Assembly: GCF_046105845.1 (NCBI RefSeq) | Contig: NZ_CP151004.1 | From: Escherichia coli | GTDB taxonomy: Bacteria > Pseudomonadota > Gammaproteobacteria > Enterobacterales > Enterobacteriaceae | Strand: one strand, 5' to 3' | DNA length: 64,000 bases | Translations under genes and position numbers: made by a program | The notes under the pieces: generated by a model | Told to the model about the DNA's origin: nothing | Seen by the model: only the letters and a program-made list of their open reading frames with translations | The model's database searches: none | Part shown: piece after piece, positions 41,097 through 44,794 of the stretch | Position numbering within the stretch: the first letter of the stretch is position 1 | How the letters are laid out: every line of letters starts with the position of its first letter

Positions 41097-42341
41097 ATGG
41101 CAACACTAACCACCACCCAAACGTCACCGTCGCTGCTTGGCGGCGTGGTGATCATCGGCGGCACCATTATTGGCGCAGGGATGTTTTCTCTGCCAGTGGT
41201 TATGTCCGGGGCGTGGTTCTTCTGGTCAATGGCGGCGCTGATCTTTACCTGGTTCTGTATGCTGCATTCCGGCTTGATGATTCTGGAAGCTAACCTGAAT
41301 TATCGAATCGGTTCTAGCTTTGACACCATCACCAAAGATTTGCTGGGCAAAGGCTGGAACGTAGTCAACGGCATTTCCATTGCCTTTGTGCTCTATATCC
41401 TGACTTACGCCTATATTTCTGCCAGCGGTTCGATTCTGCATCACACCTTCGCGGAGATGTCGCTGAACGTCCCTGCACGGGCAGCTGGATTTGGTTTTGC
41501 ACTGCTGGTAGCGTTCGTGGTGTGGTTGAGTACGAAAGCTGTCAGCCGGATGACAGCAATTGTGCTGGGGGCGAAAGTCATTACTTTCTTCCTCACCTTC
41601 GGCAGCCTGCTGGGGCATGTACAGCCAACGACCTTGTTCAACGTTGCCGAAAGCAATGCGTCTTATGCGCCGTATCTGCTGATGACACTGCCATTCTGTC
41701 TGGCATCGTTTGGTTATCACGGTAACGTGCCGAGCCTGATGAAGTATTACGGCAAAGATCCGAAAACCATCGTGAAATGCCTGGTGTACGGTACGCTGAT
41801 GGCGCTGGCGCTGTATACCATCTGGTTGCTGGCGACGATGGGCAACATCCCTCGTCCGGAGTTTATCGGCATTGCCGAGAAGGGCGGTAACATTGATGTG
41901 CTGGTACAGGCATTAAGCGGCGTGCTGAACAGCCGTAGCCTGGATCTGCTGCTGGTCGTGTTCTCAAACTTTGCGGTAGCGAGTTCGTTCCTCGGCGTTA
42001 CGCTGGGTTTGTTTGACTATCTGGCAGATCTGTTTGGTTTCGATGACTCGGCTATGGGCCGCTTGAAAACAGCATTGTTGACCTTTGCACCGCCTGTTGT
42101 GGGTGGTCTGCTGTTCCCGAATGGATTCCTGTACGCCATTGGCTATGCTGGCTTAGCAGCTACCATCTGGGCGGCAATTGTACCGGCGCTGTTGGCCCGC
42201 GCATCGCGTAAACGCTTTGGCAGCCCGAAATTCCGCGTCTGGGGCGGTAAGCCGATGATTGCGCTGATTCTGGTGTTTGGCGTCGGCAACGCACTGGTGC
42301 ATATTTTATCGAGCTTTAATTTGCTGCCGGTGTATCAGTAA
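41097..42341 (+). CDS. mtr: Tryptophan-specific permease Mtr, 414 aa
   Basis: [50 protein letters not shown]. Confidence 0.95.
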
Positions 42342-42349
42342 TTGAACGA

Positions 42350-42374
42350 GCCGGATGAGCAGTTTTCATCCGGC
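42350..42374. other. Stem-loop just past the mtr stop (weak terminator or junction hairpin)
   Basis: gccggatgagcagttttcatccggc: 8-bp stem, no U-tract. Confidence 0.35.
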
Positions 42375-42401
42375 AATAATTCACAAGTACACGAGATGGT
42401 A

Positions 42402-42932
42402 TCAAATAAACCCCTGTTTATTATAAAGTTCTTCAGCGAGAGCTTCCCCGTGCTCATCGAAAAAAGCATCGGCGATAGTTAAATTTTCTGCCTTAGGATT
42501 TGCCGTTATTTTGCTACCATTGGCATCAAATTCGAGCGCGATAGCGGTCTCCGAACCCCACCAGTAATAATAAATTAGCGCAAAATTATTTTCCCCTGGC
42601 GTAATAAACTTCTCGATTCCCCGCACACAGGCCATGAGTGGCATGAAGATTTCATAGCTCTCTGAGAGAAATATGTGATCCATCGTGACTATCTGTGTTT
42701 CTTTATTAAAGTTGATATGTTCGGCATAAATATTCTTTTCACTTTCACCAGAATTACAAGCTGCAAGATTGTTAAGCATTTTTGCAGGATCGCCGTACAA
42801 CCGCTGCTTCTCGATAAACCATGGCAACCAGTCGTCATGGTCTTTGATATTTGTTGCTGGTGAATGGAAAAACTTCTCGAGGTTACTCTCGGTAATATGT
42901 GCATGAAGAAAAAAGGAAGCCGGTTCACTCAT
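42402..42932 (-). CDS. Hypothetical acidic cytoplasmic protein, 176 aa, no recognizable family
   Basis: ATG at 42930-42932 (minus); MSEPASFFLHAHITESNLEKFFHSPATNIKDHDDW...IYYYWWGSETAIALEF; no signal peptide or TM segment; AT-rich; lies between mtr and yhbW, which I recall as adjacent in K-12. Confidence 0.6.
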   Translation of the reverse strand: MSEPASFFLHAHITESNLEKFFHSPATNIKDHDDWLPWFIEKQRLYGDPAKMLNNLAACNSGESEKNIYAEHINFNKETQIVTMDHIFLSESYEIFMPLMACVRGIEKFITPGENNFALIYYYWWGSETAIALEFDANGSKITANPKAENLTIADAFFDEHGEALAEELYNKQGFI

Positions 42933-43089
42933 AATGATTTTCTCTGGTAATAAGTCGATTTGTTCATTTCTCTGTTTGGCGATGATAAAACGATGACTAT
43001 TTTATAAAAGTACAGAACTGGACCTTTTATCTATTTCATATCATAAGAAAATATATACAAGAACTGGCTCAGAATAAGCGGAATACGAA

Positions 43090-43809
43090 ATGGGGCGTAA
43101 AGGACTACTTGCTATTGTATTGTTGAGCCTGTTTATCGCCATGATTTTTCAATTTTTCTGGCCTGCCCCACACGATGAACACGTTTTCCTGCCAGTTGAA
43201 AAACCTGTCGCACCGTCTTTAAAAATCATTCATCCTGGTGACCAGTTATTTATCCGCATTCTGAAAGCGGAAGATAAGCTGGAACTGTGGGCAAGCACCA
43301 ACAACAAGCCTTACGAACTCTATAAAACCTGGACTATATGCGCGTGGTCTGGTGGCTTAGGGCCAAAACACAAACAGGGGGATGGTAAAAGCCCGGAAGG
43401 TTTTTATGCCACCAACAAAGGGTTGCTTAACCCAAACAGCCGCTATCATCTGGCATTTAATATTGGTTACCCGAATGCTTACGATCGGGCAAACGGCTAC
43501 ACCGGTGATTTCATTATGGTTCACGGGAACTGCGTTTCAGCGGGCTGCTATGCCATGACCGATGCTGGTATTGAAGAGATTTATCAACTGGTGGCGCAGG
43601 CGCTGAATAGCGGGCAGAAGAGCGTGCCGGTGCATATCTTCCCGTTTGCGATGAACGAAGAAAATATGCGCCAGGCGCAGGTATGGCCGGAATATAATTT
43701 CTGGCGTATGTTGAAGCCCGGCTATGATTACTTTGAAAAAAATCGCCGATTGCCAACCATCACCGTTGAAAACCGGCGTTATAAAATCAGCCCAACAATT
43801 CTTCCTTAA
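43090..43809 (+). CDS. YafK/DpaA-like L,D-transpeptidase-fold (YkuD domain) protein, 239 aa
   Basis: [24 protein letters not shown] hydrophobic N-terminus; [19 protein letters not shown]; catalytic-type motif [15 protein letters not shown] (His...Ser-x-Gly-Cys); LKPGYDYFE; 3' end overlaps the yhbW 3' end by 23 bp. Confidence 0.8.
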
Positions 43810-44794
43810 CATCCATCGCCAGTTCAAACGAATGCAGGCGCGCCTGGTGATCGAAAATCTGCCCGTTAACCATAATCTCATCGGCGTCGGTTTCGCGCAG
43901 GATCGACTGCAAGCCATGACGCACTTTCGCTTTATCACCCACCAGCGACATACTCAGCGCCTGCTGCACGCCATACTGCTCGGACGGTGACCAGAACTGA
44001 TCCATATTTTGAATCGGCGGCGGTAGTTGCCCGGTTTCGCCACGGCGCAGCTTCACAAAGGCTTGCTGCATTGAGGTAAAGAGAAATTCAGCGTCGCGGT
44101 TGCTGTCGGCGGCGATAATATTGATGCACACCATCGCATACGGTTTTTCCAGCCGTGCCGACGGTTTGAAGTTGCTGCGATAAAGATGCAGCGCCTGGAA
44201 CAACATATCCGGCGCGAAGTGTGAGGCAAACGCAAACGGCAGACCAAGCTGCGCCGCCAGTTGCGCGCTGTAAAGGCTGGAGCCTAACAACCACACGGGG
44301 ATTTTCTCGCCATAGCCCGGTACCGGGCGCACATGCGGATTGGGATCGCGGGCGTCAAACCAGTCCACCAGCTCCGCGACATCGCGGGGGAAATTATCAA
44401 TATCGCCGCTCATATGACGACGTAGAGCCATCATGGTTCGCTGGTCACTACCCGGAGCACGGCCCAGCCCCAAATCGATTCGCCCCGGATAGAGCGTATT
44501 AAGCGTGCCGAACTGTTCGGCGATCACCAATGGTGAGTGATTAGGCAACATCACGCCGCCAGACCCCAGATGCAGCGTAGTGGTATTCGCCGCCAGATAG
44601 CCAATCAAAACTGATGTTGCAGCACTGGCAATGCCGGTCATATTGTGGTGTTCTGCCAGCCAGTAGCGATGATAGCCGCGCTTTTCAGCCAGACGGGCGA
44701 GCTCGAGAGAGTGGGAGAACGCTTCCCGCGCTGAAGAGCCTTCGGGAATGGGGGCCAGATCGAGTAGCGAAAACGCAATGGTTTTATCAGTCAT
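43787..44794 (-). CDS. yhbW: Luciferase-like (LLM-class) flavin monooxygenase, 335 aa
   Basis: [62 protein letters not shown]. Confidence 0.9.

Follow-up and report, generated by a model that had tools for sequence, protein, structure and literature searches.

A 23-bp convergent overlap between yhbW and an accessory YafK/DpaA-like gene in Escherichia coli, probably lengthened by a stop-codon shift, with a predicted yhbW terminator in the accessory coding sequence

Convergent gene overlaps have been catalogued in Escherichia coli, where 58 were counted in one genome and where mutation of stop codons is the main source of such arrangements (PMC2174442). In the cases described by Lillo & Krakauer (2007, PMC2174442), real genes on opposite strands overlap at their 3' ends, an in-frame stop having been lost so that the frame runs on. 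In 19 of the 58 E. coli overlaps, a rho-independent terminator is predicted for one of the partners and necessarily lies in coding sequence (PMC2174442). Overlapping 3' UTRs and the excludon concept are reviewed in PMC7821165. In multicopy, yhbW suppresses the essentiality of sigma-E, and its overexpression lowers envelope stress responses (PMC2215328). DpaA/YafK/LdtF is the amidase by which Braun's lipoprotein is released from peptidoglycan (bioRxiv 10.1101/2021.02.21.432140; PMC10653827).

The locus described here lies in a stretch of 64,000 nucleotides of E. coli DNA (contig NZ_CP151004.1), referred to as the window, in which yhbW and an LDT-like gene meet tail to tail. The genes are arranged as follows, ubiV and ubiU coming next after yhbW:
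41097 to 42341, plus strand: mtr
42402 to 42932, minus strand: gene of 176 aa with no Pfam or NCBIfam match, divergent from the LDT-like gene
43090 to 43809, plus strand: LDT-like gene, 239 aa, YkuD/YafK family, TAA stop at 43807-43809
43787 to 44794, minus strand: yhbW, 335 aa, luciferase-like monooxygenase, ending ...K-E-E-L-L-G-TGA with the stop at 43789-43787
43787 to 43809, both strands: tail-to-tail overlap of 23 bp

The overlap, which the preliminary description of this DNA had reported, is read directly from the sequence, and in strain Ecol_316 (99.8% identical) RefSeq/PGAP gives both gene ends identically. The earlier account had allowed that a re-annotated start or stop might remove it. 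As a 3'/3' overlap depends on stop codons only, re-annotation of a start cannot abolish it, and both open reading frames are real, conserved protein-coding genes: YhbW scores 732 bits against the NCBIfam equivalog NF007802, above the cut-off, and the LDT-like protein has 6132 homologues in which H145, G146 and C153 are invariant. In the overlap, codon positions 1, 2 and 3 of the LDT-like gene face positions 1, 3 and 2 of yhbW, a phase that by our reading is the 123:132 class of PMC2174442, the commonest among convergent overlaps of more than 4 bp. An overlap of 23 bp is a known, ordinary kind of feature and not very unusual.

The LDT-like protein is a member of PF03734 at the Pfam level (29.1 against a cut-off of 23.4) and scores 252.5 bits against the DpaA/YafK equivalog NF040599, below the cut-off of 365, and is therefore regarded as a paralogue within the YafK/DpaA family. 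Its best relative in the PDB is 8ikr (E 9e-65). It shares with DpaA/YafK/LdtF a YkuD fold signature of the YafK type, conserved His and Cys included; unlike them it is encoded at another genomic site by an accessory gene (3.4% of E. coli). This neighbour of yhbW is presumably an envelope enzyme. We consider it fairly probable that core yhbW and this accessory YafK/DpaA-like gene have long met tail to tail, that their overlap was lengthened by a shift of the accessory stop codon, and that a yhbW terminator is embedded in the accessory coding sequence.

The closest homologues of the LDT-like protein stop five residues sooner, ending ...YK(I/F)N* or ...YRIN*. In two enterobacterial assemblies, L005 and L007, the order is mtr -> LDT -> <- yhbW with an overlap of 8 bp, and the overlap is also 8 bp in Superficieibacter electus (L008) and in a near-identical assembly (L094). 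The window junction aligns with those of L005, L007 and L008 colinearly and ungapped, and the TAA of all three aligns with CCA at 43792-43794; L008 reads ATT AAC TAA ACA GCT CTT CTT TAA where the window reads ATC AGC CCA ACA ATT CTT CCT TAA. Colinearity and stop shift are direct observations, as are the overlap itself and the statistics and distribution of the hairpin described below. The added segment can be listed as follows:
43792 to 43809, plus strand: read-on extension of the LDT-like frame, P-T-I-L-P-stop, with CCA 43792-43794 at the position of the ancestral TAA

On the opposite strand, the ancestral LDT TAA spans the last two yhbW codons. These encode Phe-Ser or Leu-Ser in the loci with an 8-bp overlap and Leu-Gly in all the Escherichia and Salmonella yhbW genes examined. 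The ancestral LDT-like gene would have ended ...Y-K-I-N-TAA, 8 bp inside yhbW. In Escherichia and Salmonella the final yhbW codons would then have become Leu-Gly, and since this change of the yhbW end destroys the LDT stop by turning TAA into CCA, the frame would have continued to the following TAA with a gain of five codons.

Because position 2 of LDT codons faces position 3 of yhbW codons, silent third-position changes in yhbW alter second positions in the LDT-like gene. Two cases were found. The tail reads SPTTLP in E. coli 042 and in a Salmonella-flanked locus and SPTILP in the window, with yhbW GAG versus GAA, which are synonymous. In E. coli SC477 (L096 1161-1940, NZ_LR778152.1), a silent GTT->GTG change in a yhbW Val codon turns the LDT TAA into TCA, and the result is an LDT frame of 259 aa (20 further residues) and an overlap of 83 bp; PGAP labels this allele an incomplete pseudogene though the whole conserved domain is intact. 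The added tail gives no sign of protein conservation, being missing from the homologues, polymorphic (I/T) and extended in SC477. As changes in the tail follow synonymous changes in yhbW, the SPTILP tail is, judged from these comparisons, a passive product of read-on, its sequence and length being dictated by the synonymous choices of the core gene. As in the cases of Lillo & Krakauer (2007), an in-frame stop was lost and the frame runs on, and steps of 8, 23 and 83 bp are visible at this locus. Unlike in those cases, the LDT stop was lost via changes in the partner's last codons, some of them purely synonymous, so that the core gene dictates the C-terminus of the accessory protein.

Past the stop of yhbW, the minus strand carries two further elements:
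43744 to 43778, minus strand: hairpin of the proposed yhbW intrinsic terminator, 35 nt, 13 pairs, -16.5 kcal/mol, within LDT codons N218-R230
43736 to 43742, minus strand: U7 tract, complement of the A7 in GAA-AAA-AAT (E216-K217-N218), one nt past the hairpin

Read on the minus strand, the UGA of yhbW is followed by 9 nt (8 nt in L008), the hairpin from 43778 to 43744, an A and the U7 tract from 43742 to 43736. The hairpin has the sequence CGCCGGUU-U-UCAAC-GGUGAUG-GUUGG-C-AAUCGGCG, with CGCCG/CGGCG at the base of the stem. Both elements lie wholly inside LDT codons 216-230 and outside the yhbW coding sequence. The arrangement has the parts of an intrinsic terminator, with a stable GC-rich stem, a U tract directly 3' of it and a position just past a stop on the same strand. 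It does not have the form of a bidirectional terminator, as the plus-strand tail is UUAUAAAAUCAG; at -10.7 kcal/mol, the plus-strand version of the hairpin is also less stable, and it precedes the LDT stop by about 30 nt. The preliminary description had stated that no hairpin/U-tract terminator separates the genes. There is indeed no intergenic DNA, and the plus strand has no convincing dedicated terminator, but the statement overlooked the minus-strand hairpin and U7 after the yhbW stop. The consensus scan missed this hairpin because its stem has a 1x1 internal loop, and simple terminator scans overlook such stems. The minus-strand site that the scan did return, from 43679 to 43667 (5-bp stem, -6.3 kcal/mol, z +0.3), was no better than chance, and an Rfam search at the junction gave no family, the sole match being a spurious one to mir-1285.

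From this canonical-looking, predicted terminator, most yhbW transcripts are expected to end within the last ~25 LDT codons, about 45-51 nt beyond the stop, and yhbW most likely still stops transcription there, inside its neighbour. With no intergenic DNA available, the stop signal of yhbW would have been written into the LDT coding sequence; the U7 tract would come free from the conserved E-K-N codons and synonymous codon choice would maintain the hairpin. Like the terminators embedded in coding sequence of PMC2174442, the element consists of a GC-rich hairpin and then a U tract, a few nt past the stop and within the partner's codons. The present locus goes beyond those cases in showing signs of selection at synonymous sites, two compensatory pairs, and loss or weakening of the predicted terminator in relatives that have a spacer.

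Among the 70 runs of at least six T on both strands of the 64-kb window, this element ranks fifth by stability of the upstream hairpin, and the other top-ranked runs look like terminators, as judged by appearance and not by position relative to gene ends. The helix is consistently more stable on the minus than on the plus strand, with -16.5 versus -10.7 kcal/mol in the window, -23.0 versus -13.7 in L008 and -19.5 versus -9.1 in L005. This strand specificity arises because positions that form G.U pairs in the minus-strand RNA are A.C mismatches in its plus-strand counterpart. The same helix was obtained with RNAfold from the window and with RNAalifold from the alignment. Two stem pairs have changed on both sides by paired synonymous substitutions (e.g. 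Val GTT/GTC with Pro CCA/CCG), and 83% of the alignment cells pair, compared to 20-48% when the partners are slid. The covariation score of the alignment was equalled or exceeded in 33 of 500 shuffles, for a sample of 6-8 sequences representing about three independent, related lineages.

To assess codon choice, 20 codons were recoded synonymously with local codon usage, and the recodings with a hairpin-plus-U-tract score at least equal to that observed were counted; this null is built on codon usage only and not on dinucleotide context, and the statistics were computed after the hairpin had been spotted. The outcome for each locus was as follows:
Window (E. coli), 23-bp overlap: 71 of 5000 recodings as good
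L093 (Salmonella-type), 23-bp overlap: 16 of 3000
L005, 8-bp overlap: 0 of 3000
L007, 8-bp overlap: 0 of 3000
L008 (Superficieibacter), 8-bp overlap: 1 of 5000
L004 (Escherichia-like), 131-bp REP spacer: 306 of 3000, -11 kcal/mol
L088 (Klebsiella-type), 42-bp spacer: no U tract, embedded helix of -7.1 kcal/mol, 68% of recodings as stable

In all the overlap loci the observed hairpin beats 98.6-100% of the synonymous recodings, and in the two spacer loci the signal of hairpin and U tract is weak or missing. In L088 the LDT-like protein reads E-K-Y (GAG AAA TAC) and not E-K-N, and the A7/U7 tract is absent. The spacer of L088 (3712-3753, 42 nt) has a hairpin of its own, a 66-nt fold of -20.2 kcal/mol on the plus strand and -28.3 on the minus strand. 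A scan of contigs for YafK homologues returned 80 loci, mostly distant and elsewhere in their genomes, which serve as negative controls only; Superficieibacter electus was the only addition among close relatives. In Leminorella grimontii (L009 3100-3201), a YafK-like homologue is found downstream of the atp operon and not beside yhbW, a convergent LysR-type gene ends 11 nt past its stop, and the opposite strand of the same LDT region carries a small hairpin and U5, which may be a parallel case or a coincidence.

On the plus strand, no convincing dedicated terminator was found after the LDT stop. The one candidate is a weak structure within yhbW antisense:
43884 to 43935, plus strand: weak hairpin (43884-43922) with an interrupted U-rich tail, -17.3 kcal/mol, tail score -2.35

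This structure is identical in K-12, which lacks the islet described below, and is absent from Superficieibacter L008; it is not specific to the LDT-like gene and is probably not a dedicated terminator for it. The plus-strand RNA between about 43870 and 44030 is C-rich and G-poor, with 28-30 C versus 15-17 G per 80 nt. As Rho has an established role in suppressing antisense transcription, we infer that this stretch is compatible with Rho loading on untranslated RNA. The LDT-like mRNA would run untranslated into yhbW antisense until Rho acts at this stretch. Probably, then, no intrinsic terminator stops the LDT-like transcript, and its read-through is limited at most by Rho. The claim that each transcript must read into the other gene stands in so far as each mRNA holds at least 23 shared bases, and probably stands for the LDT side; for yhbW it is overstated, given the hairpin and U7. 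If both genes are expressed, their mRNAs would be complementary over at least ~70 nt (43736-43809), which recalls excludons and overlapping 3' UTRs (PMC7821165). Excludons are marked by long overlapping transcripts, RNase III processing and reciprocal expression, whereas at this locus an apparent terminator on one side would limit the overlap to a short stretch.

The LDT-like gene belongs to an islet that most E. coli strains lack, and the left edge of this islet carries a structure of its own:
42343 to 43790: islet relative to islet-less E. coli, 1448 bp, replacing a 117-nt REP-containing mtr-yhbW spacer
42350 to 42374: strong 10-bp hairpin between mtr and the 176-aa gene, -18.0 kcal/mol on the plus strand (z -2.7) and -19.8 on the minus strand (z -3.8)

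The second of these has poor U tracts and is likely a shared 3'-end structure of the convergent pair formed by mtr and the 176-aa gene, as far as such a fold can be interpreted. Alignment with islet-less strains confirms the earlier proposal that the right boundary of the islet coincides with the yhbW stop. Similarity to these strains breaks off at 42342, one base past the end of mtr, and begins again at 43791; the stop codon and the Gly wobble position of yhbW differ (TGA/GGC in the window, TAG/GGA in K-12). Of 5426 complete E. coli genomes, 183 carry the islet, strain 042 among them, and the GC content of the islet is 37-46% compared to 51-59% in the flanks. It does not resemble a mobile genomic island, with two genes only, neither of them a recombinase, and no boundary repeats; no direct or inverted repeats or target-site duplication were found at its ends. 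Escherichia, Salmonella-flanked, Superficieibacter and Klebsiella-type genomes all have the two-gene module between mtr and yhbW, the partner gene (176-182 aa) travelling with the LDT-like gene in four genera, and in L005 and L007 the LDT-like gene is alone at the mtr-yhbW site, without its 176-aa partner.

The contig L004, Escherichia-like and ~91% identical, carries the islet. Its LDT stop is directly followed by what is left of an old yhbW 3' end, 14 bases out of 15; compared in register, this fossil agrees at 13-14 of 21 bases, the null maximum being 13. Next come a 131-nt spacer, which is homologous to the mtr-yhbW spacer of K-12, and then a working yhbW end (region 1570-1700). As far as the sequence can be interpreted, the layout of L004 implies that a REP-associated insertion took place and that the yhbW end was duplicated with it. 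The K-12 spacer seemed by eye to retain part of the LDT 3' end, GGCTTCC...CGCGTTAAGACA resembling LDT codons; this was rejected, as local alignment against shuffles gave p ~0.4-0.7, and none of the spacer comparisons for such a remnant fell below p 0.1. Likewise, a BLAST match of 52% coverage in islet-less B2 strains was a fortuitous similarity.

These observations bear on whether the islet could be a recent insertion and the overlap its scar, the right end having come to the yhbW stop by chance. The rarity of the islet among complete E. coli genomes and its low GC content would fit such an origin. So would its similarity to the Salmonella-flanked locus L093, which is 93-95% identical over the islet (local 90-99%) and 84-86% over the mtr and yhbW flanks, with the switch in similarity at the islet edges, a pattern that suggests exchange of just the islet cassette between E. 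coli and Salmonella. Against a recent insertion, the module occupies the same site in Klebsiella-type genomes as in Escherichia, Salmonella and Superficieibacter, with LDT/yhbW junctions that align base for base where the genes overlap, flanking repeats and mobility genes are absent, the K-12 spacer is homologous to that of L004, and L004 keeps a fossil of the overlapped yhbW end. We therefore regard a recent insertion as improbable. Since the module is found at one site in four genera, loss of the islet in most E. coli is favoured, with the overlapped junction old and the islet-less state apparently derived; given the L004 fossil, its K-12-like spacer and the colinear junction, that state would arise most simply from an L004-like intermediate by deletion of the two genes. 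The preliminary description had left open whether the boundary reflects a deletion elsewhere or an insertion here. The colinear junction, the spacer homology and the fossil favour deletion, and lateral exchange is also indicated; homologous recombination through the conserved flanks fits both the old junction and the lateral movement.

An old junction carrying a yhbW terminator in the LDT codons must in turn be weighed against other accounts of the hairpin and of the antisense RNA. The hairpin and U7 might be a by-product of protein sequence and shared ancestry, without terminator function: the E-K-N codons, by our estimate from typical E. coli codon use, are expected to give A7 in about half of the recodings; the hairpin arms encode a repeated N-R-R, 11 codons apart, which predisposes to self-complementarity; the window recoding result is modest on its own (1.4%); independent lineages are few; and Leminorella has a different small hairpin with U5. 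Such a by-product would not explain why recoding gives p <= 0.0003 in the three loci with an 8-bp overlap, why the structure is weak or absent in both spacer lineages, why two stem pairs show compensatory synonymous changes or why the minus strand is consistently the more stable, and we hold it to be doubtful. That the A7 and hairpin act on the plus strand for the LDT-like gene, as a frameshift or slippage site or as an mRNA structure, is exceedingly improbable. The dnaX frameshift cassette has a heptamer of the A_AAA_AAG type, which the zero-frame A_AAA_AAT followed by a hairpin superficially recalls; however, the gap between heptamer and hairpin is 0-1 nt and not 5-9, A.C mismatches leave the plus-strand hairpin much weaker, and the -1 frame, as we read it, closes after ~8 codons and yields nothing conserved. 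The first reading of this junction, by which no terminator is present and both transcripts run far into their partner, with mutual antisense interference or excludon-like regulation, draws on the lack of intergenic DNA, on a consensus scan that finds nothing at the junction, on a plus strand without an LDT-specific terminator and on overlapping convergent 3' UTRs being known to give rise to antisense RNA and to substrates of RNase III (PMC7821165). It is countered by the hairpin and U7 that follow directly on the yhbW stop and bear signs of selection. It is also countered by Rho, which normally curtails untranslated antisense RNA. Mutual antisense is unlikely, and this reading could hold for the LDT-side transcript alone. 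With yhbW acting on sigma-E essentiality and envelope stress when overexpressed (PMC2215328) and its neighbour a paralogue of an envelope enzyme, a functional link between the two is conceivable. That the conserved junction is more than tolerated, the embedded terminator and the unterminated LDT transcript giving the accessory gene's expression one-sided antisense control of yhbW in an asymmetric, excludon-like arrangement, is very improbable.

Combined, these results place the locus among convergent overlaps made by stop-codon mutation, with what appears to be a rho-independent terminator in the coding sequence of the partner, and the comparative evidence for this assignment is unusually tidy. 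That the junction has no terminator most likely does not hold for yhbW, and probably does for the LDT-like gene. Both classes of feature are already known and the locus is a clean worked example more than a discovery. At one locus and in few genomes, a convergent overlap is seen to grow from 8 to 23 to 83 bp via changes in the partner gene, some of them silent, and the longest-overlap allele is one that annotation pipelines may call a pseudogene, as PGAP did for SC477. The locus also illustrates how a predicted terminator of a core gene can be encoded in the synonymous sites of an accessory gene and be weak or absent where a spacer is present. Deletion or recoding of the 3' end of the LDT-like gene would probably remove the proposed terminator of yhbW.
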